Positions 1 to 47,934 of a stretch of 60,222 nucleotides of DNA are shown here, piece after piece; the stretch's first letter is position 1, and each line of letters starts with the position of its first letter. A model generated the notes under the pieces. The model was not told the DNA's origin. It saw only the letters and a program-made list of their open reading frames with translations, and searched no databases. The DNA is taken from IMG/VR virus record IMGVR_UViG_3300042898_005595, positions 1 through 60,222 of that record, one strand, 5' to 3'. The position numbers and the translations under genes are program-made. The stretch is from a virus (taxonomy: Duplodnaviria; Caudoviricetes).

Positions 1-18
1 TGTACCATACTAGCTTCC
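1..18 (-). tRNA. 5' end of a probable further tRNA-like gene, cut by the window edge
   Basis: Minus strand reads GGAAGCTAGTATGGTACA, 10 nt after the preceding tRNA-like gene in the cluster; no anticodon visible. Confidence 0.3.
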
Positions 19-28
19 AATCAATATG

Positions 29-109
29 TCGGCGTGACTGGAATCGAACCAGCATTTTCACTTACCAATTACCCGTAGCAATCTTATCAGGATTGAGGGT
101 TACACGCCG
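29..109 (-). tRNA. Atypical tRNA-Ile(GAU)-like gene without a normal D arm
   Basis: Acceptor CGGCGTG/CACGCCG+A, anticodon arm CAATC-CTGATAA-GATTG, T arm GCTGG-TTCGATT-CCAGT; only 7 nt between acceptor and anticodon stems. Confidence 0.6.
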
Positions 110-824
110 TTTTCTCTTCAAAATGTGTTTCCTTATGACAATTAGAACATAATAAAATACACTTATCAACTTCATTTTTTAATCTTTCAAAAGACCAAGA
201 TTTACCTGAAATGGTGAAATCTTTTTCATTTGGATCCCTATGGTGAAATTCAAGAGCATCTATACATTTTTTATATCTACATCTTTCACACTCACCACCT
301 TTATATTCTACAAGTTCAATTTTCTTTCTCCTTCTCCATTCAACTACTCCTTTTACTAATTGTTTTTTTCTTTTTTGTGAAACAATATTCATAACAGAAT
401 CTCTCGAAACATTTAGTAGTTTGGCTACCTTTCTAGTACTTTTAACTTCTTTATATGTTTCTCTTATCTTTGATTTAGTATCATTTGATATTTCAGAAAA
501 TTTCCTATTCATTATTAGTTCATATTCTCTACATATTTTTCCTATTATTGATTTCGATAGTCCTGTTATTTTTTTAATTTCTTCATAAGTTTTTAATTCT
601 TTTCTTAGTTCAATTACTTCATCAATTTTATCTGTTTCTAGTAAAAAAGAATTTGATTTTTCTTGTCTCTTATTTTTTATTTTTAAATTATTTTTTATTT
701 TCTCGTCATTATTCTCGATTTTAGAACAGTGATAAGAAATTGTGGATTTAGAACAATTTAATTTTTTAGCAATTTCATTATAACTAAATCCAAGTTTTCT
801 GAGTTCTAATATTTCTTTTTTCAT
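87..824 (-). CDS. HNH homing endonuclease with N-terminal helix-turn-helix repeats
   Basis: HTH-like repeats (FSYNEIAKKLNCSKSTISYH); C-terminal CERC..LEFHHRDP..CILLCSNCHKETH. Confidence 0.85.
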   Translation of the reverse strand: MKKEILELRKLGFSYNEIAKKLNCSKSTISYHCSKIENNDEKIKNNLKIKNKRQEKSNSFLLETDKIDEVIELRKELKTYEEIKKITGLSKSIIGKICREYELIMNRKFSEISNDTKSKIRETYKEVKSTRKVAKLLNVSRDSVMNIVSQKRKKQLVKGVVEWRRRKKIELVEYKGGECERCRYKKCIDALEFHHRDPNEKDFTISGKSWSFERLKNEVDKCILLCSNCHKETHFEEKTACNPQS

Positions 825-868
825 TTTGATTAACTTATTTTGTTAATCATATATATTAAAAATCTTTG

Positions 869-939
869 CTCCCCAGGTAGGTTACGATCCTACTTCCTAC
901 GTGTTAACAGCACGTTGCTCGCCACTGAGCTTCTGAGGA
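869..939 (-). tRNA. tRNA-Asn(GUU)
   Basis: Acceptor TCCTCAG/CTGGGGA+G; anticodon arm ACGTG-CTGTTAA-CACGT. Confidence 0.9.
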
Positions 940-952
940 ATATTTCTGTTTG

Positions 953-1025
953 TAGCTCCTGCGGGATTCGAACCCACATTCTCGCTTTAGAAGAGCGATG
1001 TCCTGTCCAGTTGGACGAAGGAGCT
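953..1025 (-). tRNA. tRNA-Arg(UCU)
   Basis: Acceptor AGCTCCT/AGGAGCT; anticodon arm TCGCT-CTTCTAA-AGCGA; GGTTCGAATCC T arm. Confidence 0.92.
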
Positions 1026-1030
1026 TTTTG

Positions 1031-1119
1031 TACCTCAGGTCGGACTCGAACCGACAGTGTTTTCCACGAGGGTGCTAGTTTCTAAAACTAGTGCGTTTCA
1101 ACCGTTTCGCCACTGAGGC
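1031..1119 (-). tRNA. tRNA-Leu(UAG)
   Basis: Anticodon arm CTAGT-TTTAGAA-ACTAG, long variable arm, canonical T arm. Confidence 0.92.
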
Positions 1120-1158
1120 ATCTTGTACCATTTTTTAAAAGGTGGTACTTCCTTTTTG

Positions 1159-1233
1159 TACTCCCCATCGGATTCGAACCGATACCTGTACAGGGTTTAA
1201 GTCTGTTGCCTCTTCCAATTGGGCTACGGGACC
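1159..1233 (-). tRNA. tRNA-Leu(UAA) with short variable arm and acceptor mismatches
   Basis: Anticodon loop CTTAAAC, T arm ATCGG-TTCGAAT-CCGAT; acceptor GGTCCCG/GGGGAGT has two G-G mismatches. Confidence 0.75.
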
Positions 1234-1237
1234 ATAT

Positions 1238-1275
1238 AAAACAAAAAACCCGAACTTCTTTCGAGGTTCGGGTTT
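1238..1275 (-). terminator. Attenuator terminator of the Leu/Arg/Asn/Ile tRNA operon
   Basis: AAACCCGAACCTC-GAAA-GAAGTTCGGGTTT then TTTGTTTT, directly before tRNA-Leu(UAA). Confidence 0.85.
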
Positions 1276-1302
1276 ATATCTTATTTGGAGTTATTTACTT
1301 CA

Positions 1303-1410
1303 TCATGAGATAAATCCAAATTTTGCACAACCCGAACCAGCGGTTCTAATACATAACGTATTCACCACCATCGTGAGATTCAAATTGATATTTAGATTCA
1401 TTGTTTTCAT
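1303..1410 (-). CDS. Leader peptide (35 aa, Asn/Leu-rich) of a tRNA operon attenuator
   Basis: MKTMNLNINLNLTMVVNTLCIRTAGSGCAKFGFIS*; contains GGTTCGGGTT, fully complementary to the terminator 5' arm. Confidence 0.75.
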   Translation of the reverse strand: MKTMNLNINLNLTMVVNTLCIRTAGSGCAKFGFIS

Positions 1411-1457
1411 TATTTCTTATATATTAAAAAGTTTATGTTCCTTTTGATTTTGTTTTA

Positions 1458-1489
1458 CAAATATATGGTGTATTTTTTACACCACCAAA
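1458..1489 (-). promoter_or_regulatory. Bacteroidota-type primary sigma promoter
   Basis: TTTG-N20-TATATTTG matches the -33/-7 consensus TTTG/TAnnTTTG; a second TATATTTG lies at 1524-1531. Confidence 0.75.
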
Positions 1490-1548
1490 TTTATTTTATT
1501 ATTTTTCTGTTTTTATTGTATTACAAATATACAATAAAGTTTTTAAAG

Positions 1549-2316
1549 TTATAGAGATATATTATTACTCTTTAAAACTTCGGCTAGAACTTCAATAGAT
1601 TCTTCTACTCTATCGTATTGAAATATTCCATTACTATTTGGCTTTGGCCAGTAGTTTATTTTCCACTCATATCTTGGATAAACATTGACTACTCTACTTT
1701 CAATATTTTTGTATTTTAAATAGTAACTAAAAATATGATCATCATGCATCGCAATCATATCGTGAAGCTTATATCCATCGATGAACATATTTACCCAATT
1801 ATATAAATCCTCATAATTTAGAATATTTGCTGGGTAAAGAACTCCACGATATCCACCTAACAAATCAACAATATGATAGTCACCATTTATAAATTCACCA
1901 TGGACAAATTTATCATCTTTAATACCCATTATTCCATATACAGAGTCACTACCACACTTATCATGAATATTTTTCAAACATTCTATAGCAGTTGGGAATA
2001 ATCCATTATCATCATCAAATATTAATATTTGATCATCAGATTGTAAGTTATGTTCCTTTAGTGGAGTTAATAGTTTAAGACAAGGTCCTATATCCTGATC
2101 ATAAAAAACTATCCTATTCTCGATAGGATAGTTTTTTAATTTTTCAGATATTTTTTCAATATCAGATTCATCTATAGACTTATTGAGTCTAGGATAAAAT
2201 CTCGATATCGAAACATATAAAAAGTCTGGAATTATTGTACTTAATAATAATTCATCAAGTGTTTTGATGAAATCATCAGTTCTATCGGGTAAAGTAATAA
2301 CAGAAGAGATTATCAT
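1549..2316 (-). CDS. GT-A fold glycosyltransferase-like protein
   Basis: TLPDR start, DIGPCLKL, IFDDD motif, GGYRGVLYP, HDD. Confidence 0.65.
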   Translation of the reverse strand: MIISSVITLPDRTDDFIKTLDELLLSTIIPDFLYVSISRFYPRLNKSIDESDIEKISEKLKNYPIENRIVFYDQDIGPCLKLLTPLKEHNLQSDDQILIFDDDNGLFPTAIECLKNIHDKCGSDSVYGIMGIKDDKFVHGEFINGDYHIVDLLGGYRGVLYPANILNYEDLYNWVNMFIDGYKLHDMIAMHDDHIFSYYLKYKNIESRVVNVYPRYEWKINYWPKPNSNGIFQYDRVEESIEVLAEVLKSNNISL

Positions 2317-2738
2317 TAAACAACTTCTAAAATTTCAATATCAAATACTAATGTCTCACCAGCCAATGGATGATTCGCATCAACTAAGATATTAGAGTCA
2401 TTTATTTCCTTAACTATAAAAGGTACTTCTTGTCCGTTCTTTAGAGTACCTTTCAATGTTTGTCCAATCACAACATTATCAGGAGCCATATTTTTAGGAA
2501 CACTAAGAATCATCTCCTGATTTATCTCACCATATCCTCTTTCTGGATCAATCTGAACAGTTTTTTTCTCACCTGGAATCATACCCAAAACAGCTTCCTC
2601 AAATCCCTGAATTAATTGACCTTCTCCAACAACAAACTCAAGAGCTGTTCTATCATCACGATATGAGGTGTCAAAAATACTATCATTAGTATATTTACCA
2701 GTATAATGTACCTTTACTTTACTTCCGTTTTTAATCAT
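2316..2738 (-). CDS. FKBP-type peptidyl-prolyl isomerase, SlyD-like
   Basis: VKVHYTG..FDTS..GEGQLIQGFEEA..YG..VDANHPLAGETLVFDIEIL. Confidence 0.92.
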   Translation of the reverse strand: MIKNGSKVKVHYTGKYTNDSIFDTSYRDDRTALEFVVGEGQLIQGFEEAVLGMIPGEKKTVQIDPERGYGEINQEMILSVPKNMAPDNVVIGQTLKGTLKNGQEVPFIVKEINDSNILVDANHPLAGETLVFDIEILEVV

Positions 2739-2790
2739 TTCTAATATTTATTTTTAATTTTATTAAAAATAATAGAATAAGTTTAAAATC

Positions 2791-3096
2791 TTAATGTTCC
2801 TGATCATCCCATTCCGTATCATCAGTATATAAATCATCTATATACAAGGATATTTCTTGATATATTTTTTCAACTTGACTATAATCAAACCATCTTGTTT
2901 CAGATTCTAATTCTTGTAAAAATCTAACAAAACTATCTGTACCTGGTTTAAACATTTCAATAAGTTCCTCCTTTGAATGCTCTGGATATTTTAAATCAAT
3001 CCACTCATGGAATATCTCAAAAAGATCTTCTTCTTGTTCAGATGGCAATCCTTGATAATCTTCTTCAAAATCTTCGTACATTTTTAAATAGTTCAT
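2791..3096 (-). CDS. Acidic hypothetical protein with CTS-like N-terminus
   Basis: ORF starting MNYLKMYEDF; TATATA motif upstream. Confidence 0.6.
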   Translation of the reverse strand: MNYLKMYEDFEEDYQGLPSEQEEDLFEIFHEWIDLKYPEHSKEELIEMFKPGTDSFVRFLQELESETRWFDYSQVEKIYQEISLYIDDLYTDDTEWDDQEH

Positions 3097-3137
3097 TACA
3101 AAAAATAATTTTAATTATATATTAAAAATAATTTTAA

Positions 3138-3401
3138 TTAATCAAGATCAAAGATCATTTTATAATATTTTCTAATGTAGTTCGGAAGTTTACCATGTTT
3201 CTCCTCACACCTTTTAAAAAGATCAGCTTGTACAATTGCATTATATTGATCTAAATTATTTGAAAAGACTTTAGTTCGTATATCGATATGTGCATCTGCA
3301 CCATCTTCACCCTTATAAGCGTCTATCAAACTTTTATAAGAACCTGATATCTTTGCAGGTAATACATTATTAGACTCGTTAAACTTTTTTAAATGCTTCA
3401 T
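3138..3401 (-). CDS. Hypothetical protein with CTS-like N-terminus
   Basis: MKHLKKFNES. Confidence 0.6.
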   Translation of the reverse strand: MKHLKKFNESNNVLPAKISGSYKSLIDAYKGEDGADAHIDIRTKVFSNNLDQYNAIVQADLFKRCEEKHGKLPNYIRKYYKMIFDLD

Positions 3402-3469
3402 ATTTTGTAAATGATTTAATTATATATTAAAAAGTCTAATTAAAAATTTCATATTTTAATATATAATAT

Positions 3470-3952
3470 ATGAAATACTTAAAACTATTTGAATCATTTG
3501 ACATAGATGAAGACGCTGAACATCTTAAAGATTTATCTTTGGATTTAAAAGATGAAGGCGAATGGAGTATAACTATTCACACAAATGTTGAAAAGTATAA
3601 TGACGATGATTATTCTACAAGAGTTATTCTTGAACCATTAGATGAATTTGATTGGGATGGTCCGGGAGTTGCCGAGGGTAATACTAAAGGTGGTAAGATA
3701 AATGATACACTAATTCAATATCTGGAAGACATTGTAGAGTATATGGAGGATTATGATTATAAAATAATAGTTGTAGGTGATGGTGATAACCCTATAACGA
3801 TCAACAGCTCACATCATGAAATAAACATAGAAAATGTTGAAGAGTTTAAAAAATGGACACAAAGAGAATTAAAATATCAAAGAAGTGACATAATGACATT
3901 TGGATTTAAAGGTGATTTAATCATTATAGAATTCTATGAAAAAGATATATAA
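3470..3952 (+). CDS. Acidic hypothetical protein with CTS-like N-terminus
   Basis: MKYLKLFESF; AATATATA directly upstream. Confidence 0.65.
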   Translation: MKYLKLFESFDIDEDAEHLKDLSLDLKDEGEWSITIHTNVEKYNDDDYSTRVILEPLDEFDWDGPGVAEGNTKGGKINDTLIQYLEDIVEYMEDYDYKIIVVGDGDNPITINSSHHEINIENVEEFKKWTQRELKYQRSDIMTFGFKGDLIIIEFYEKDI

Positions 3953-3955
3953 CAT

Positions 3956-4822
3956 ATGAAAAAATTCTCTGAGTCACAGATTTCAATTTTTGAATCTCCA
4001 GAACCTCTCGACTTTGTATCACTATTTGAAAAGATGAAAAATCTTAAGTCTTGGCTTTACACGTCAACTGGTCTTGGTATGATGTCTATAATTGATGATA
4101 TATTCAAAGAATATAATTATGAAACATCATTAAATCAAAATCAAATTGATAAGTTTAATAGAGGTGTTGAATTATTGAAAAAAACCTCAATGCCATTAGA
4201 CCACATAAATTTACGACTATCTCAAAAATTACCAGGTGGCATACAAAGTAAAAAATTAGTTTTAGATGAGAATGGCGAATGGGATTATGTCAATAAATTA
4301 AATACAAATTATTTAGATTTATCTGATCTTTTAGTTGAATTAATAAAAAGAGGATGTGATAACAACTATGAAAAGGGTAAATTAGTATATGATTCAATTA
4401 TGAATAATCCCAAACAAGGATTGTTAGAAATAAAACCATACTTAAAAAGATTAATAGTACTTTACTTTATTGAAAAGGGGAAAGGATTGGATGATTTTAA
4501 AAAATTTACGGTATATTCAAAGAAAATGTCTAAGATAGGAGAAGTAGCTGAAGATTCAGTAACAGCCTTTTTACAATCTAAAGGATTTTTAATCGCACAC
4601 TCTGGTGGAAATGGAGATTTTATAGATATGGTTTTCGGTGTTGATTTGATAATTTTTTGTCATACTAATAAAAATCCAGATCTTGTTGGATACAAAAGCG
4701 TCCAGATAAAAAATAGGATTGATGATTGGTCTAAATTAAGTTACTATAAAGTTGATATAGTAGCAGAAACAAACCCAGTAAGGTTCTATAACCTTAAAGA
4801 TAAATCTATTTTAGATCTTTAA
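3956..4822 (+). CDS. Hypothetical protein, possible C-terminal PD-(D/E)xK nuclease fold
   Basis: GEVAE..DMVFGVDLII..SVQIK pattern. Confidence 0.45.
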   Translation: MKKFSESQISIFESPEPLDFVSLFEKMKNLKSWLYTSTGLGMMSIIDDIFKEYNYETSLNQNQIDKFNRGVELLKKTSMPLDHINLRLSQKLPGGIQSKKLVLDENGEWDYVNKLNTNYLDLSDLLVELIKRGCDNNYEKGKLVYDSIMNNPKQGLLEIKPYLKRLIVLYFIEKGKGLDDFKKFTVYSKKMSKIGEVAEDSVTAFLQSKGFLIAHSGGNGDFIDMVFGVDLIIFCHTNKNPDLVGYKSVQIKNRIDDWSKLSYYKVDIVAETNPVRFYNLKDKSILDL

Positions 4823-5405
4823 TTTGGATCATCTTTCTAACAACCGTTTTCAATCCCGGATTCACCAATAGTGCCTCTGGTACAATATTGTGACGAATAC
4901 GATTTCTTGAATAATCAACACAAGAATTAGATTCATCTTCAACAAATGGTACATTTTTATTCTGACACCATTTATAAAATACTGATTTTTCATTAAGTAA
5001 GAATGGTCGAATCACATTTCCTCTAGAATAAGGAATAACCGATTGAAATCCTCTAAGACAAGAGAATAAGTAAGTCTCTACACAATCATCTAAATGATGG
5101 CAAGTAATAATAGGAAAATCAAATTGTGAGAAAAATTCATATCTCAAATCACTCCAAATCTTTTCTTTGTTAGATTTAGGACTTAAATCAGTTCTTCCAA
5201 CAAATAATTTTAAGTTATGAGTTCTACAATATTTTGTAACTAATTCTTCGGCTTTATCTCCATTTTCTGTATTATGATTGAAGTATAGAATATTAGGATA
5301 ATATCCACCATTCAATAGAAAGTTAGCAATCGCCATTGAATCAACTCCACCAGAACAAGCAAGTCCGAATTCTCCTTTTGGAATATTACCTAAAACTTTA
5401 ATCAT
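4806..5405 (-). CDS. tilS: tRNA(Ile)-lysidine synthetase, catalytic domain only
   Basis: SGGVDS PP-loop, FNH, LRY, HHLDDCVET, IRPFL, DESN..RNRIRH; likely ATG at 5405 just after TATATTTG. Confidence 0.88.
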   Translation of the reverse strand: MIKVLGNIPKGEFGLACSGGVDSMAIANFLLNGGYYPNILYFNHNTENGDKAEELVTKYCRTHNLKLFVGRTDLSPKSNKEKIWSDLRYEFFSQFDFPIITCHHLDDCVETYLFSCLRGFQSVIPYSRGNVIRPFLLNEKSVFYKWCQNKNVPFVEDESNSCVDYSRNRIRHNIVPEALLVNPGLKTVVRKMIQIKDLK

Positions 5406-5450
5406 ATACAAATATAATCAAATTATTGTAAATTTCAAGATAATTAATTG

Positions 5451-5525
5451 TGGAGCGTAAGGGAATCGAACCCTGTTTTTCAGAACAACTTGCAAAGTTG
5501 TTTGGTCACGCCTGTACAACGCCCC
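5451..5525 (-). tRNA. tRNA-Ala(UGC) with atypical D region
   Basis: Acceptor GGGGCGT/ACGCTCC+A with G3:U70; anticodon arm ACAAC-TTTGCAA-GTTGT; TTCGATT T loop. Confidence 0.7.
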
Positions 5526-5534
5526 TTTATTTTG

Positions 5535-5608
5535 TGGAGAATATCGGATTTGAACCGATTACCTTTTGTATGCCATACAAACTCTCTAGCCAACTGAGCT
5601 AATTCCCC
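5535..5608 (-). tRNA. tRNA-Ala(GGC)
   Basis: Acceptor GGGGAAT/ATTCTCC with G3:U70; anticodon arm TTTGT-ATGGCAT-ACAAA. Confidence 0.88.
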
Positions 5609-5646
5609 TGGAGCCGGACCCTGGGACTAACAGGGAGTCCTCCGGC
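5609..5646 (-). ncRNA. 38-nt tRNA-minihelix-like element ending in UCCA
   Basis: GCCGGA-GGACT-CCCTG-TTAGTCC-CAGGG-TCCGGC-TCCA, abutting G1 of tRNA-Ala(GGC). Confidence 0.5.
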
Positions 5647-5649
5647 ATT

Positions 5650-6300
5650 TTAAATATCAACTTTTTTAATAACTCTTCCTTTTATCCATCCAATACTTAT
5701 ATAATCATTTAAATCATTTTTATTAATTTTTTTATTTCCGAATTCAATATGATATATCCAACAAGTTCCATATTGAGAATTTTTCTCACCTTTTTGACTT
5801 TTAGAATTTTTTTCACCAATCTTCTTTTTCGATTCTTCTTTATGACTCTTTCCTGTCCAATCAGGTGCCTTTAAAATTCCCAATTCTCTAAGATTTCTAT
5901 TCTGTATAACCATTCTTTCTTTATTTCTTTTTCTGAATTCTGGATTATTCCAATTAATTTTATTCATTGAAATAGCAGCTTTTTTATTTTTTTCCTTTCT
6001 TAGTACAATGTTAGAATTTATTGATTCAAAACAATCACCACCTACAATTATATTATACACATCAATTCTTTTTATAAAACTCTCATTAACTATTTTTTTC
6101 TCCATTTCGTATGCCTCATTCTCACTATCTAATATAAATAATATATCCTTTACAAAATTTTCAACTCCATATTTAATTATGGCTCTTCTAATATATTTTC
6201 CACTTCCCATATAACCATCATTTATATCAGTCGTTGAGTGTTTACCTATGTAAATTTTACCATTTAAGATATTTGTAATTTTATAAATTATATGCAACAT
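5650..6300 (-). CDS. GIY-YIG homing endonuclease (Seg-like) within the tRNA cluster
   Basis: IIYKITNILNGKIYIGKH..YMGSG..YN; NUMOD3-like GKSHKEESKKKIG. Confidence 0.9.
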   Translation of the reverse strand: MLHIIYKITNILNGKIYIGKHSTTDINDGYMGSGKYIRRAIIKYGVENFVKDILFILDSENEAYEMEKKIVNESFIKRIDVYNIIVGGDCFESINSNIVLRKEKNKKAAISMNKINWNNPEFRKRNKERMVIQNRNLRELGILKAPDWTGKSHKEESKKKIGEKNSKSQKGEKNSQYGTCWIYHIEFGNKKINKNDLNDYISIGWIKGRVIKKVDI

Positions 6301-6346
6301 AACAAGAACTATTTATTTTATATATTAAATAGTTCGAGTCCTGTTA
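6299..6346 (-). promoter_or_regulatory. Hairpin occluding the endonuclease start, with TATATA in the loop
   Basis: TAACAG..GAACTATTT-AATATATAAAAT-AAATAGTTC-TTGTTATG. Confidence 0.6.
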
Positions 6347-6354
6347 CTCACAAG

Positions 6355-6425
6355 AGCAAAATGTGGGAATCAAACCCCGTCCCCACATTGGAAGTGTGGT
6401 GCTTTATCATTAAGCTACATTTTGC
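6355..6425 (-). tRNA. tRNA-Gly(UCC), apparent 8-bp acceptor and 4-nt T stem
   Basis: GCAAAATG/CATTTTGC+T; anticodon arm CCACA-CTTCCAA-TGTGG. Confidence 0.75.
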
Positions 6426-6430
6426 TTATG

Positions 6431-6504
6431 TTGGTGAGGTGGGTAACGATCCCACTATCTTGTGTGTATAAGACACATGCTTCTACCGTCTAAGCTACTC
6501 ACCA
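6431..6504 (-). tRNA. tRNA-Ile(UAU)
   Basis: Acceptor TGGTGAG/CTCACCA; anticodon arm TGTGT-CTTATAC-ACACA; T loop ATCGTTA. Confidence 0.85.
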
Positions 6505-6541
6505 AAATAAAAAAACCCAGTCAATTTTCATCGACTGGGTT
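6505..6541 (-). terminator. Attenuator terminator of the Ile/Gly/Ala tRNA operon
   Basis: AACCCAGTCGAT-GAAA-ATTGACTGGGTT then TTTTTATTT. Confidence 0.88.
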
Positions 6542-6568
6542 AAGTTTTTTAGTTTTTAATATTATAAT

Positions 6569-6655
6569 TTAAAAACTTTTTGACATAACACAGTCATTGA
6601 CACCCGCTCCCGCGCCGCCTCCGATTATTGCTATTGTTATGTTTAAAGTTTTCAT
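6569..6655 (-). CDS. Leader peptide (28 aa, Ile/Gly/Ala-rich)
   Basis: MKTLNITIAIIGGGAGAGVNDCVMSKSF*; ATAx3, ATC, GGA GGC GGC GCG GGA GCG GGT. Confidence 0.85.
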   Translation of the reverse strand: MKTLNITIAIIGGGAGAGVNDCVMSKSF

Positions 6656-6716
6656 TTTATTCTATTTTTAATTATATTATTATATATTAGAAAAGTTTTC
6701 TTTCCTAAATTTTTTG

Positions 6717-6799
6717 TTGGAAGAGAGGGATTCGAACCCCCGTACTCCGAAGAGATTTGATTTACAGTCAAACGCATTTAGCCACTCTGCCACCTTCCA
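6717..6799 (-). tRNA. tRNA-Tyr(GUA)
   Basis: Anticodon arm TTTGA-CTGTAAA-TCAAA, long variable arm, GGTTCGAATCC. Confidence 0.92.
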
Positions 6800-6808
6800 A
6801 TATTTTTG

Positions 6809-6879
6809 TAGCCCGTAGGGGTAACGATCCCCTCTTTTTTGGTTGAAAACCAAGAGTCCTTCCTCTAGACGAACGGGCC
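6809..6879 (-). tRNA. tRNA-Glu(UUC)
   Basis: GGCCCGTTCGTCTAG..GGAC; anticodon loop TTTTCAA; T loop ATCGTTA. Confidence 0.88.
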
Positions 6880-6885
6880 AATTTG

Positions 6886-6959
6886 CACTCTTGACGGGAA
6901 TCGAACCCACATCTACATCGGTCTGAGAAACCGGAGTCCTACCGTTAGACGACAAGAGC
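6886..6959 (-). tRNA. tRNA-Glu(CUC)
   Basis: GCTCTTGTCGTCTAACGGTAGGAC; anticodon loop TTCTCAG; GGGTTCGATTCCC. Confidence 0.88.
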
Positions 6960-6965
6960 ATTTAG

Positions 6966-7036
6966 TGGGATAAGAGAGAATCGAACTCTCGTAGCTATGT
7001 TTTACAGACATTCTTGGTTGCCCTGACCTTTATCCC
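6966..7036 (-). tRNA. Atypical tRNA-Tyr(GUA) with short variable arm and odd D arm
   Basis: Acceptor GGGATAA/TTATCCC+A; ATGT-CTGTAAA-ACAT; GAGAG-TTCGATT-CTCTC. Confidence 0.7.
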
Positions 7037-7042
7037 AATTTG

Positions 7043-7116
7043 TACTCTTGACGGGAATCGAACCCGCATCTACATCTGTTTGAAAAACAGGAGTCCTACC
7101 GTTAGACGACAAGAGC
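7043..7116 (-). tRNA. tRNA-Glu(UUC)
   Basis: Near-duplicate of 6886-6959 with anticodon loop TTTTCAA. Confidence 0.88.
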
Positions 7117-7131
7117 ATTTACAATATATTT

Positions 7132-7168
7132 AAAACAAAAAACCCAGTCAATTTGATTTGACTGGGTT
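7132..7168 (-). terminator. Attenuator terminator of the Glu/Tyr tRNA operon
   Basis: AACCCAGTCAA-ATCAAA-TTGACTGGGTT then TTTTGTTTT. Confidence 0.88.
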
Positions 7169-7195
7169 ACTTGTGTTTTTAGTTAATATTTTATA

Positions 7196-7276
7196 TCAAC
7201 TTTTCACAGACATAGTATCTCCAGTCGCTGAGTGTTCTTCATACGCTTCATAATAATATGTTGTTACAGTTGTCAT
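7196..7276 (-). CDS. Leader peptide (26 aa, Tyr/Glu-rich)
   Basis: MTTVTTYYYEAYEEHSATGDTMSVKS*; TAT TAT TAT GAA GCG TAT GAA GAA. Confidence 0.85.
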   Translation of the reverse strand: MTTVTTYYYEAYEEHSATGDTMSVKS

Positions 7277-7311
7277 GATTTCTTTATTTTAAATTGTTCT
7301 ATTTTGTTTTA

Positions 7312-7342
7312 CAAATATACGGAGATTTTTTAAACCACCAAA
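7312..7342 (-). promoter_or_regulatory. Bacteroidota-type promoter driving the Tyr/Glu leader
   Basis: TTTG-N19-TATATTTG. Confidence 0.78.
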
Positions 7343-7361
7343 TATTTGTAAAACTTTTTTG

Positions 7362-7433
7362 TAGCGGGGGGTGGAATCGAACCACCGACCTTTAGGTTAT
7401 GAGCCTAACGAGCTGCCTCTGCTCTACCCCGCA
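7362..7433 (-). tRNA. tRNA-Met(CAU), initiator-like
   Basis: TGCGGGGTAGAGCAG..AGCTCG, anticodon arm TTAGG-CTCATAA-CCTAA, 1:72 mismatch; own TATATTTG at 7451-7458. Confidence 0.88.
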
Positions 7434-7538
7434 ATATTTAGTATATATTACAAATATACTTCTTTGTTTTAATTTTTTTAATATATAATTTTATAATTAA
7501 CTTTTTTTTATTATATTTGTAAAACAAACAACAGAACT

Positions 7539-7886
7539 ATGACAAATTTCCTATCAATAGATGAACGTAATCAAATTGAGAAAGCAAAGGCTGAAATTAA
7601 GTCAGAACTATCTCGATTAAGAAACAAAATTAATAATTTTGTAGGTATTGAAATATTTACTTTTATTCTAACACTTTCATATCTCAATAATCAATCTTTT
7701 CTATTTGATACCAATCCAATTGTTGCATGGTCAATCCTTACAGGATTAGTCCTATTTCAAGTTATTCTAGTAATGGCCACACGAGTGGCTCTATACAATT
7801 GGAATACTAACCAACGTGTATTAGAGATTTATGACATGTCAGACGAAGAGTTTGACAGAAAATTCAAAGAATTCTGTGAAAAATAA
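7539..7886 (+). CDS. Two-TM membrane protein
   Basis: Two hydrophobic segments; TATATTTG at 7512-7519. Confidence 0.7.
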   Translation: MTNFLSIDERNQIEKAKAEIKSELSRLRNKINNFVGIEIFTFILTLSYLNNQSFLFDTNPIVAWSILTGLVLFQVILVMATRVALYNWNTNQRVLEIYDMSDEEFDRKFKEFCEK

Positions 7887-7909
7887 AAAAGACCTTTTAG
7901 GTCTTTTTT
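7885..7909. terminator. Bidirectional intrinsic terminator
   Basis: AAAAAAGACCT-TTT-AGGTCTTTTTT between convergent genes. Confidence 0.8.
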
Positions 7910-7919
7910 ATTTTAATTT

Positions 7920-8345
7920 TTAATTAGTTGAATCAACTAAGATATCATCTTCATCGGGAAGATCAAAAACTTCTTCATCATCTTTATCAACTTCATTATA
8001 GAGATTTTTGATGAAGTTTGGTGCAGGAACTTTTGCTGTTTTAAAATCTACTAAACTTGGAACTGTTGTTCTAAAAGTAGATAAAAGATAAACTACACTC
8101 CAAACAAAATTTAAATCTTTTAAACATAGTAGAGAGAATACTACTGGAACTAAAATTGGAGAGAATGCTACTAGTCGAACTTGAGTTAGAGTGTTAAGGT
8201 TAGAAATATAAATCCTAACACAGTCAAGTCTCTTGATACGGATCTTATTAATTCTACTGAAAAGTAGAAGAGCAACAAGTATATGTGATAACTCGTGTAG
8301 AACAAGAGCGGGTAAACACCAGATATTTTTATAGAATTTAATCAT
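7920..8345 (-). CDS. Membrane protein with HExxH motif (zincin/M50-like)
   Basis: LVLHELSHILVA..VAFSP. Confidence 0.6.
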   Translation of the reverse strand: MIKFYKNIWCLPALVLHELSHILVALLLFSRINKIRIKRLDCVRIYISNLNTLTQVRLVAFSPILVPVVFSLLCLKDLNFVWSVVYLLSTFRTTVPSLVDFKTAKVPAPNFIKNLYNEVDKDDEEVFDLPDEDDILVDSTN

Positions 8346-45603: not shown

Positions 45604-47934
45604 CTATTTTAGAAAAGTTAAAAAATTGTTATAGACTTCAATTGATTTTTCATTTTCATCTCTATATCTATCCATATTGTTTTCATCCAAAACAGATTTA
45701 ACAAGTGAGTCATATCTATCAACTTCCCTTCTAATAATATTTATACTTCTGGAAAAATTACCACCAACATCATTATATCTACCATAATTACAAATAAGTC
45801 CTTGAGTTCTAGTATTTGAATCGATCGAGTTTTGAGTTAAATATGATTCAAGTCGATATCTTGCATAATCTGAATCATTAAAAACAATATACCAATAGGA
45901 AAAATATAATATTGAATCTTTAAATGTTTTAATAAACTTTCTCAACTTATCTTTTAAAATATCATCACTATCTCTAGTATCTACAAAAACTTCTTTTTTA
46001 TCTAAATCCTCAAAGGTAAAATCTCGAGAAGAACCTCGGATGTCCGATAAAAATTGGTCTATCGATTCATCACTTAACACTTTTTCAATAACCAAATTAT
46101 CTTTATACAATTTTGATACAATACTATTAAAATAAGATGTATAAGATCCATATTCTTTAACACCATTGTACGAATCATTTATAGTTCTATAAGACCCAAC
46201 ATTATTTGAATATAAATAATCACCAATCTCTTTTAAATTTTTTAATAAAGGTTCAGGATTACATCCCTCAATAGACGCCGTGTATTTCTTAATTATATCA
46301 ACACTATACTTATAACACATTCTACTATATCCTTTATAGTAATCTTCATTTTGTATATAAACAACCGGTCTATCACCAATTTCAAAATTAAAATACTCTA
46401 ATGTTTCTTTAGTAGAATATTTTTTTCTACTAGTTTGTGTTTTATCATAAAAATTTAAAAATATAGGAAACTTTGTATATTTATCATCAATCCCCCATGA
46501 GTGATAATAAACACTTAAGGTGTCAAGTAAGTCATTAAATATCCTATCAGAGTGATTAAATTCATCACTATCTATCATATAGAGTGTGATATATTCATTA
46601 TCTAATCTATCTGTTTTTATAATATTATTTCCATTATAGGCGTCCCATAAACAAAACTTACTATTAATCCAATAGTCATTGAAGCCAATTTCAACGTTTA
46701 AATAGTTTGAATTATCTAATTTAGATCGTAAAAACTTTTTAGGATCAGAAGGTCGTCCATCTTTAACACCATCATAAACAGTGATTATATCATTAGAATC
46801 AACTAATCCAAATCCTTCTAGATTGACCGCATTATCTTTATCAATATAAGATTTATAATAATCTGAATAAATTGAATTATCTTTAAAAATCCAATTATCA
46901 TCATAACCTCTCACACAATCAGACTCTAAATAGTAATCATTAAGACTATTAACATAAATAGATTCTCTATTTGAAAGCCATCTTTGATAATGATCGGACC
47001 AATCATGATTAGGTACATTTGGATCACCTTCAGTATTTTGAATATGAAATTGTAATTTCGATCTATCCTCTATTGCATATGTTCCTAAAACACCATCTTC
47101 ATAGTCAAGAACAGATAGAGTATCCATATATGGATACTTATCAAACTTCCATTTTTTCAATTGTATTTTACTTTCCCTTGTTTTCCCCATAAAATGTGAC
47201 ATATAATCATCATCAGTTGCCTTTATAAAATCTTTATACCAATCATGAATCTTTTCAGCATCATTATCAAATCTTGTATAAATTCTATCTAAATAATAAC
47301 CATATTTATTAACACCTCCAATTAATTTCCAAAGTAAAGCTCTTCCAAGTAATCTATTTTTATCATCAACTAGAATTACTAATTGACAGACATCAGGATT
47401 TTCTGTGTAAATATTTAAAAAAGATTGAGTTTCTTCATATCTCATACAAGAACTATTCAATTGACCACCACCAGGTACATATTTATCTACATGATACCAA
47501 TCTCTAATATCCTCACCTGAAACTACATGAATACCTTCTCCAGTTTTTTTAAATAATTTATCCCAAGCATTTTTATAAGTATTAACAAATTTTTCAATTT
47601 GCGGATCGGTTACAGAAATACTATTAGTTGTTAAAATTTGTCTAACTGTTCTACCAATCTTAGCACTATTTGTAGCTCTATCAAATGGATCTTGACCCGC
47701 ATCAATAAATCTTTTTACTTGTGTATCATTTACAAATTTCATGTCATCATTTTTATCAGATGGCTTTAGATAATTAACATTAGTTTTAATATCTTTATCT
47801 ATCAATGATAATAACATTTTAGCGACAGGATCTTTATCAGAAATTGATCTAATTAATTCATCAAATTCTGGATTAACTTTTAAAATTGACTCTAAAAGTA
47901 AAAAAAAACTAAAATCGAAATATTTTTTAATCAT
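45604..47934 (-). CDS. Large SCM/RALLW/DRIY-family protein
   Basis: KIGR, NSSCMR, GRALLW, YLDRIY, YPYMDT. Confidence 0.65.
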   Translation of the reverse strand: MIKKYFDFSFFLLLESILKVNPEFDELIRSISDKDPVAKMLLSLIDKDIKTNVNYLKPSDKNDDMKFVNDTQVKRFIDAGQDPFDRATNSAKIGRTVRQILTTNSISVTDPQIEKFVNTYKNAWDKLFKKTGEGIHVVSGEDIRDWYHVDKYVPGGGQLNSSCMRYEETQSFLNIYTENPDVCQLVILVDDKNRLLGRALLWKLIGGVNKYGYYLDRIYTRFDNDAEKIHDWYKDFIKATDDDYMSHFMGKTRESKIQLKKWKFDKYPYMDTLSVLDYEDGVLGTYAIEDRSKLQFHIQNTEGDPNVPNHDWSDHYQRWLSNRESIYVNSLNDYYLESDCVRGYDDNWIFKDNSIYSDYYKSYIDKDNAVNLEGFGLVDSNDIITVYDGVKDGRPSDPKKFLRSKLDNSNYLNVEIGFNDYWINSKFCLWDAYNGNNIIKTDRLDNEYITLYMIDSDEFNHSDRIFNDLLDTLSVYYHSWGIDDKYTKFPIFLNFYDKTQTSRKKYSTKETLEYFNFEIGDRPVVYIQNEDYYKGYSRMCYKYSVDIIKKYTASIEGCNPEPLLKNLKEIGDYLYSNNVGSYRTINDSYNGVKEYGSYTSYFNSIVSKLYKDNLVIEKVLSDESIDQFLSDIRGSSRDFTFEDLDKKEVFVDTRDSDDILKDKLRKFIKTFKDSILYFSYWYIVFNDSDYARYRLESYLTQNSIDSNTRTQGLICNYGRYNDVGGNFSRSINIIRREVDRYDSLVKSVLDENNMDRYRDENEKSIEVYNNFLTFLK

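Follow-up and report, generated by a model that had tools for sequence, protein, structure and literature searches.

A candidate leader-peptide attenuator ahead of a tRNA operon in a phage genome fragment

The leader and the tRNA operon

The complete IMG/VR virus record IMGVR_UViG_3300042898_005595 (60,222 bases, estimated completeness 23%), here called the window, contains at its left end a tRNA operon preceded by a short open reading frame (ORF) and an intrinsic terminator, all on the minus strand. Judged from its sequence, this element is very probably a ribosome-mediated (leader-peptide) transcription attenuator. The closest named relatives are LR745206, LR756502, LR756504 and LR756501, which are genomes of uncultured huge phages of 634-735 kb.

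The leader ORF (1303-1410, minus strand; ORF call and in-frame codon count) comprises 35 codons and a TGA stop (1305-1303). It contains five in-frame AAT codons, at codons 5, 7, 9, 11 and 17, together with the Leu codons CTA, TTG, CTC and TTA, one AGA, two ATC and one ATT, as well as Met, Val, Thr and Cys codons. The ORF and these codons had been listed in a preliminary description of the window, and every one of them was found in place. Codons 5-12, in which Asn alternates with Leu or Ile, make up region 1 (1377-1399, minus), as delimited by minimum-energy folds. For the amino acid specified by each of these eight, the operon has a tRNA or tRNA-like gene (Asn, Leu, and Ile through the element at 109-29).

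The operon begins with tRNA-Leu(UAA) (1158-1233), tRNA-Leu(UAG) (1030-1119) and tRNA-Arg(UCU) (952-1025), found by both ARAGORN and Rfam, followed by tRNA-Asn(GUU) (868-939), which was called by ARAGORN and is outside the Rfam gathering-level list. Next come an inserted segment (114-864) with an HTH-HNH homing-endonuclease gene (ORF 824-87; Pfam HTH domains and a weak HNH match), a tRNA-like element with a GAU (Ile) anticodon loop (29-109; Rfam tRNA model, 30.2 bits, gathering score 29) and the start of a second tRNA-Asn(GUU), which is ended by the record edge (1-26; recognized by identity to metagenome contig L080). All of these lie on the minus strand. The four tRNAs and the Ile(GAU)-like gene named in the preliminary description were thereby recovered, the former by ARAGORN and the latter by Rfam.

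The record begins at position 1, and the continuation of the array was traced in relatives. Six metagenome contigs encode an identical leader peptide, and four of them were aligned by blastn, with 90-96% DNA identity over the leader. In contigs L038, L050, L080 and L029 the base corresponding to window position 865 directly adjoins that of position 113, and window 113-27 is 100% identical to the sequence just after the first Asn tRNA in these contigs. The exact joining of the flanks indicates that the 751 bases 864-114 are an insertion peculiar to this record. The final 27 nt and the stop codon of the HNH ORF extend into the conserved tRNA-like element, which all but lacks a D arm, carries 22 extra nt in the variable region, was not called by ARAGORN, and is 97-100% identical in relatives without the HNH gene. 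This element may be a working Ile tRNA, a decayed tRNA or a processing signal. Window 112-1 is 100% identical to positions 2717-2828 of L080, where ARAGORN calls tRNA-Asn(GUU) at 2806-2879.

In L038 the array runs Leu, Leu, Arg, Asn, Asn, Cys, Val, Ile, Leu, Thr, Val, Thr, Met, and in contigs with the same leader peptide the inspected arrays continue with differing selections of Asn, Cys, Val, Ile, Thr and Met tRNAs. The expectation that some of the Val, Thr, Met and Cys tRNAs may lie to the left of position 1 was therefore borne out in the arrays of relatives, the record itself ending there. When the leader was compared with the full tRNA set of L038, 23 of 34 residues after Met1 belonged to the set (0.41 expected), and this own set ranked first of 14. 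The codon match had been described as looser here than in the two other leader-terminator units of the window (see below); the 8/8 match at codons 5-12 and the 23/34 residues argue against that view. Several ARAGORN tRNAs with four- or two-base anticodon loops, reported as '???', were seen in the arrays of L006 (~47364-47437), L015, L017, L028, L057 and L070, and could be odd tRNAs, pseudogenes or miscalls.

Upstream of the leader is a promoter-like site (1458-1489, minus; pattern match) with a TTTG box, a 20-nt spacer and a TAnnTTTG box, which we take to be the Bacteroidota type of promoter. A 91%-identical copy is found at 7301-7343, ahead of the third unit, similar elements precede orthologous leaders, and the region resembles intergenic DNA from Flavobacterium phages. 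The motif was rejected as a window-wide signal (7 matches against 3.55 expected, with 7 reached by 6 of 100 shuffles) and was kept as a local feature only.

Terminator, antiterminator and alternative folds

The intrinsic terminator (1238-1275, minus; terminator scan and folds) is a hairpin at 1275-1246 of about -16 kcal/mol with a U-tract to 1238. Its end is 12 nt ahead of tRNA-Leu(UAA), which leaves no space for a separate tRNA promoter. Three strong minus-strand terminators were found in positions 1-8000, each of them directly ahead of tRNA genes.

Two further regions of the leader RNA were defined by pairing and folds, the first of them also by covariation. Region 2 (1312-1339, minus) is the 5' strand of the putative antiterminator, with a core at 1338-1329 and an inner strand at 1321-1315. 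Region 3 (1263-1289, minus) includes its partner and the terminator 5' arm, with an inner strand at 1289-1283 and a core at 1274-1265. The 10 nt of the core (1338-1329) complement 1274-1265 without mismatch, as do the 7 nt at 1321-1315 those at 1289-1283, and the perfect 10-bp antiterminator noted by the earlier reader, with its ATTTGGA/TCCAAAT extension, was thus confirmed in both parts. The duplex between the leader and the terminator 5' arm has an energy of -18.6 kcal/mol (z = -5.8), and none of 500 dinucleotide shuffles of the leader was as good. The stop codon at 1305-1303 follows region 2 and precedes region 3; a ribosome terminating there would cover the region 2 inner strand.

For the full leader (1410-1243) the predicted folding energy is -43.1 kcal/mol (z = -3.5), a value matched by 2 of 200 shuffles. 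In this fold a long helix of region 1 (1399-1377) with region 2 (1339-1312), capped by a hairpin at 1369-1339, stands beside a separate terminator. When the terminator 3' arm was omitted, region 2 paired with region 3, and 12 of the 13 nucleotides in the arm took part. The same was predicted in 12 of 12 orthologues, in which the full leader formed the 1:2 helix and the terminator, and 10-13 nt of the 5' arm paired with region 2 once the 3' arm was left out. The competing folds of the window are of similar strength, with -26.2 kcal/mol from ORF start to stop, -26.3 from region 2 to the 5' arm and -15.9 for the terminator; the 1:2 duplex has -19.3 kcal/mol, a value matched by 4 of 300 shuffles. 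This set of predicted folds is the trp-type 1:2 / 2:3 / 3:4 arrangement.

The central hairpin at the apex of the 1:2 helix (1339-1369, minus; folds of 12 orthologues) is conserved at the DNA level. Its sequence is common to the window, LR745206 and LR756502, three sequences identified independently of any search for it, and it may serve as an RNA polymerase pause hairpin. A different hairpin, of 5 bp with a 3-nt loop at about 1346-1334, had been proposed as a protector. Its letters are present, but it was rejected in that role, being outside the minimum-energy and centroid folds and having no counterpart in orthologues; the predicted 1:2 pairing was put in its place.

Orthologues and covariation

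A search pattern derived from the central hairpin was used to collect orthologues and yielded 9 loci in IMG/VR and 93 stretches in metagenome contigs; the family is common in lake-water metagenomes. Three of the 93 stretches are chance matches in long ORFs, leaving about 90 true leaders, and seven end before the terminator; the remaining stretches show a leader, a terminator and an Asn/Leu-type array wherever the contig continues. No tRNA was found in L011 and L012. Two other scans were discarded. A scan of IMG/VR for exact copies of 21 nt at the leader start gave a single match (L005), in an unrelated coding context with no tRNA, which was attributed to chance. A leader-pattern scan of genome contigs gave eight matches, all inside long ORFs (seven in Aquimarina and one in a metagenome-assembled genome of Eubacteriales), which were likewise considered chance and provide no host information.

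About 100 loci contain 55 distinct combinations of region 2 and terminator 5' arm, with at least five stem sequences, each with its matching region 2. The mean duplex energy was -17.1 kcal/mol for matched and -11.7 kcal/mol for cross-type combinations, and the two main stem types reach only about -7 to -10 kcal/mol against each other. Among 20 representatives, 100% of the terminator cells were paired, with changes on both sides at 4 of 9 pairs and a covariation score of 0.443 (0.089 in shuffles), while for the antiterminator the corresponding values were 86.1%, 4 of 9 pairs and 0.165 (0.081 in shuffles); neither score was reached by any of 500 shuffles. The antiterminator score was lower in all slid registers. 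Its unpaired cells belong mostly to five rows, including that of the window, in which region 2 is offset by 3 nt, plus L017, offset by 1 nt. With the offset taken into account, pairing in these rows is complete at the three variable pairs, two of which are changed on both sides. The MAFFT alignment used (A2) keeps the 3-nt and 1-nt shifts and was read with two structure strings; a first alignment (A1), in which gaps around region 2 were wrongly placed in the rows of the window and L017, was excluded from the pair counts. The peptide encoded by region 2 varies freely and complementarity is kept, indicating that the constraint there acts on the RNA. Gaps upstream of region 2 in the leader alignment are multiples of three.

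Leader content and tRNA sets across units and phages

Two more units of the same kind are present on the minus strand of the window. The second (leader 6655-6569, terminator 6541-6514) has a leader rich in Ile, Gly and Ala codons ahead of tRNAs Ile(UAU), Gly, Ala and Ala, and the third (leader 7276-7196, terminator 7168-7141) has a leader rich in Tyr and Glu codons ahead of tRNAs Glu, Tyr-like, Glu, Glu and Tyr. The second unit directly follows the preceding array with no separate promoter-like site, which suggests that the attenuators work in series.

Fourteen further units were found in LR745206 and LR756502 (stretches of 50 kb and smaller). The resulting 17 units fall into seven classes, namely Glu/Tyr; Ile/Gly/Ala; Asn/Leu with Val, Ile, Thr, Met and Arg; Pro/Asp; Gln; His/Phe/Lys(/Trp); and Arg/Ser. 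If a Cys tRNA of other relatives is added, every one of the 20 amino acids is represented. All units contain an ATG followed by an open frame, whose stop is 16-33 nt ahead of the terminator. Across the three phages, the own class gave the best binomial enrichment in 13 of the 17 units, and the observed sum was reached by 1 of 5040 class permutations, the true one. The amino-acid-matched codons are in most classes also readable by the anticodons of the own array (e.g. 12/13, 28/29 and 7/7).

Over 77 distinct leaders, the amino acids of the tRNAs downstream account for 48.0% of the residues read in frame and for 37.5% and 21.0% of those in the two alternative frames; none of 5000 shuffled pairings did as well. 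The match is concentrated early in the leader, with 58.9% in codons 2-22 and 27.6% in the later part, which is constrained by the RNA strands of regions 2 and 3. A translation-independent RNA switch, in which leader triplets bind tRNA anticodons directly and thereby decide between terminator and antiterminator, would account for the two alternative structures and for a leader rich in triplets complementary to downstream anticodons. It resembles the T-box riboswitches, which also link tRNA status to genes serving the same codon family through a terminator/antiterminator choice. T-boxes, however, bind uncharged tRNA directly and contain no ORF, while the element described here has an ORF with an in-frame match. 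The frame specificity, the ATG, open frame and stop of every unit and the length differences in threes all speak against such a switch. No T-box or other riboswitch family was matched, even at E values up to 10; for the T-box model there was no gathering-level match in the whole window and none at E up to 10 in 1234-1500. We consider this explanation very improbable.

The grouping of tRNAs differs in LR756501 and LR756504, and the leaders follow the local groupings. Their arrays include Arg/Thr/Val/Ala/Gly/Pro; Arg/Ile/Met; Glu/Ala/Ile/Val/Gly; Tyr/Gln/Lys; and Trp/His/Phe/Lys/Ser. The own tRNA set ranked first in 12 of 14 groupings, and none of 200,000 re-pairings reached the observed sum. 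In our view this re-sorting of tRNAs along with leader content is the strongest single argument for a reading of the leaders as codons. The attenuator interpretation of the preliminary description, including the link between codons and tRNAs, is thus backed by shuffles, by covariation and by re-pairing of leaders and tRNA sets.

The same results bear on two other explanations. In the first, the locus would hold an ordinary terminator or insulator for upstream transcription and a chance small ORF, and the tRNAs would be produced through processing or constitutive read-through. Terminators abound in phage genomes, the promoter pattern shows no enrichment over the window as a whole, and short ORFs are frequent in AT-rich DNA: an ATG ORF of 12-60 codons ending 0-60 nt before the site was found at 734 of 3000 random positions (24%). 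Such an ORF is, however, present at 121 of 121 terminators located at most 140 nt upstream of a tRNA, all loci taken together. Furthermore, the upstream gene ends at 1549 and is separated from the leader by the promoter-like site. The leaders vary in composition with the tRNA sets, and region 2 and the terminator arm change together; none of these features would be expected by chance. The different tRNA groupings in LR756501 and LR756504 speak against an artefact of shared ancestry. An ordinary terminator or insulator is hardly credible on this evidence.

In the second, the same attenuator would respond to amino-acid starvation or to general translation capacity and not to tRNA supply, the codon match merely tying an array to its own amino acids. 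Both signals would act at one step, since a stalled ribosome senses charged tRNA, as it does in the trp and his attenuators, and the leader and codon results do not separate them. An amino-acid shortage is, however, not relieved by more tRNA, so that it is difficult to see why a codon-exact match would have been selected, and a general capacity sensor would need no 14 different leader compositions. This alternative is unlikely, albeit less so than the previous two.

The distribution of the device was also surveyed. A strict terminator scan, which required a stem of 7 bp or more containing no more than one mismatch and lying within 140 nt of a tRNA and so would miss weaker or more distant attenuators, gave nothing in the LR756501/LR756504 arrays L144, L145, L146 and L152 or in the tRNA-rich regions L153 and L154 of Prevotella phage Lak-A2; the spread among huge phages is uneven or only partly detected. 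Of 20 tRNA loci in the genome of Aquimarina mytili (Flavobacteriaceae), six had some upstream hairpin and none had a leader ORF enriched in the amino acids of its array; this was the single bacterial genome examined, and others may have counterparts.

Genomic setting and neighbouring genes

The window is AT-rich and contains 13 tRNAs detected by ARAGORN and two more detected by the Rfam tRNA model only, all on the minus strand and inside the first 7.5 kb. Homing-endonuclease genes (HTH-HNH and GIY-YIG) are scattered among them, and a PP-loop (TilS-like) gene is close by. The DNA of the stretch was found in sequencing runs from at least 10 studies.

Just upstream of the promoter-like site are a 255-residue ORF without Pfam match (1549-2316, minus) and a gene for an FKBP-type peptidyl-prolyl isomerase (2316-2738, minus). 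The PP-loop ATPase gene (4806-5411, minus; PF01171, E 1e-30) is directly downstream of the Ala tRNAs and belongs to the tRNA(Ile)-lysidine synthase family. A CAU tRNA is found within the Ile/Gly array of LR745206, and a tie to the PP-loop gene through an Ile-decoding CAU tRNA would be a guess. A GIY-YIG/NUMOD3 homing-endonuclease gene (5650-6300, minus) lies between the Gly and Ala tRNAs of the Ile/Gly/Ala array.

The Tyr-like tRNA of the third unit (6966-7036, minus) has 71 nt and a GUA anticodon, and is without the long variable arm that bacterial tRNA-Tyr usually has; it was found by Rfam at 32.8 bits and missed by ARAGORN. A tRNA-Met(CAU) gene (7361-7433, minus) immediately follows a promoter-like motif, the two being separated by neither a leader ORF nor a terminator, and the same placement is seen in LR745206. 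Its position outside attenuator control would make sense if this tRNA were the initiator, which is a guess at its identity.

Discussion

The arrangement suggests the following mechanism. Transcription would begin around the promoter-like site at 1489-1458, and a host ribosome would translate the 35-codon leader. With plentiful charged tRNAs for the early codons (Asn, Leu and Ile, then Thr, Met, Val, Cys and Arg), the ribosome would reach the stop codon and cover the inner strand of region 2, so that region 3 would pair with region 4 to form the terminator and transcription would stop 12 nt before the first tRNA. If no ribosome were present, region 1 would sequester region 2, again leading to termination. 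Slow decoding would stall the ribosome on region 1, leaving region 2 free to pair with region 3 (10 + 7 bp); the terminator would then not form and the array would be transcribed. The products of the array would be, in close relatives, exactly the tRNAs for the regulatory codons. Since these products read the sensed codons, the circuit would constitute direct negative feedback on decoding capacity, that is, a demand-controlled supply of tRNA.

The element is comparable to the enterobacterial leaders trpL, hisL, leuL, pheL, thrL and ilvL. It shares with them a short promoter-proximal ORF rich in regulatory codons, the 1:2, 2:3 and 3:4 helices, which are predicted by folding here, a terminator just before the controlled genes, and a stop codon placed where a terminating ribosome would block the antiterminator. 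thrL and ilvL sense several amino acids at once, and the leader described here would do likewise. Unlike the enterobacterial leaders, it is phage-borne, up to eight amino acids would be sensed per leader, and the controlled genes are tRNAs and not enzymes, so that the product would act directly on the sensed step. With tRNAs as the controlled genes, the element falls outside the classical scope of leader attenuators, which is amino-acid biosynthesis or synthetase genes. The Rfam leader models scored below their gathering thresholds (Thr_leader RF00506, 19.9 against 55 bits; Trp_leader RF00513, 13.5 against 41 bits). The pheM leader of E. coli pheST, which encodes phenylalanyl-tRNA synthetase, is a case of leader-peptide attenuation of a translation-apparatus gene that responds to the level of charged tRNA; it differs in that a synthetase is controlled, a single amino acid is sensed and the location is chromosomal.

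We know of no earlier case of textbook leader-peptide attenuation acting on tRNA genes. Full-text literature searches, in which subscription journals were largely outside the scope and which therefore do not prove absence from print, returned no leader-peptide attenuation of tRNA genes. The tRNA arrays of large phages (T4, T5 and the huge phages, PMC7162821) are similar to those of the window in having clustered tRNA genes interspersed with homing-endonuclease genes, and LR745206, LR756502, LR756504 and LR756501 are records of the kind reported by Al-Shayeb et al. 2020 (PMC7162821). Leader-peptide regulation is not described in the main text of that article, where words beginning with 'terminator', 'attenuat' or 'leader' occur 0 times.

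Several points weigh against the proposed attenuator or limit the evidence for it. There is no evident Shine-Dalgarno site at the leader ORF; such sites are usually missing in Bacteroidota. The presumed translation of the leader, in a host that is presumably one of the Bacteroidota, has indirect support from the frame-specific composition and the gaps in threes. Six metatranscriptome runs contained just 0.04-0.12 of the sampled words of the stretch, which was not counted as expression. Because the central-hairpin pattern was used for collection, conservation of that hairpin in the ~100 orthologues is uninformative, and because the orthologues are related, the shuffle counts overstate their independence. 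In energy models, the 1:2 pairing was matched by 0-9 of 300 shuffles in six of 12 orthologues and by 16-39 of 300 in the other six. The antiterminator is much weaker outside the Asn/Leu class: 83 of 500 shuffles were as good for the unit at 6514-6655 and 6 of 500 for that at 7141-7276, and over all 17 units at most 13 of 500 were as good in seven, 26-40 in three and 71-240 in seven. In two of the 14 groupings the own tRNA set did not rank first; one of these leaders also has codons for tRNAs behind the next attenuator downstream, and the other is suspected to be alike. Lastly, a stalled ribosome would report low charged tRNA, by which a shortage of tRNA and one of amino acid are indistinguishable, and extra tRNA would be useless for the latter.

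Why and when phages use the tRNAs they carry is an open question, and here a regulatory logic may be readable from the DNA. A sensor before each array, written in the codons that the array decodes, would mean that the phage makes tRNA according to decoding demand and not constitutively. Attenuation of this kind offers a directly testable model of tRNA control. It could also help in annotating which tRNAs share one transcription unit in uncultured huge phages, and could provide compact natural sensors of specific tRNA availability for synthetic biology.

More tentatively, and as a possibility that we hold to be somewhat less than even, this lineage of huge phages might run its whole tRNA complement as a small set of codon-demand sensors (seven leader-controlled arrays in the closest relatives of the window), each array being switched on only when its own codons are decoded too slowly. 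The complement would then act as a virus-carried decoding homeostat and an inducible counter-defence. If so, one phage could adjust to hosts with different tRNA pools, and could answer array by array, with built-in negative feedback, to the loss of host tRNAs through host shut-off or tRNA-cleaving defence nucleases.

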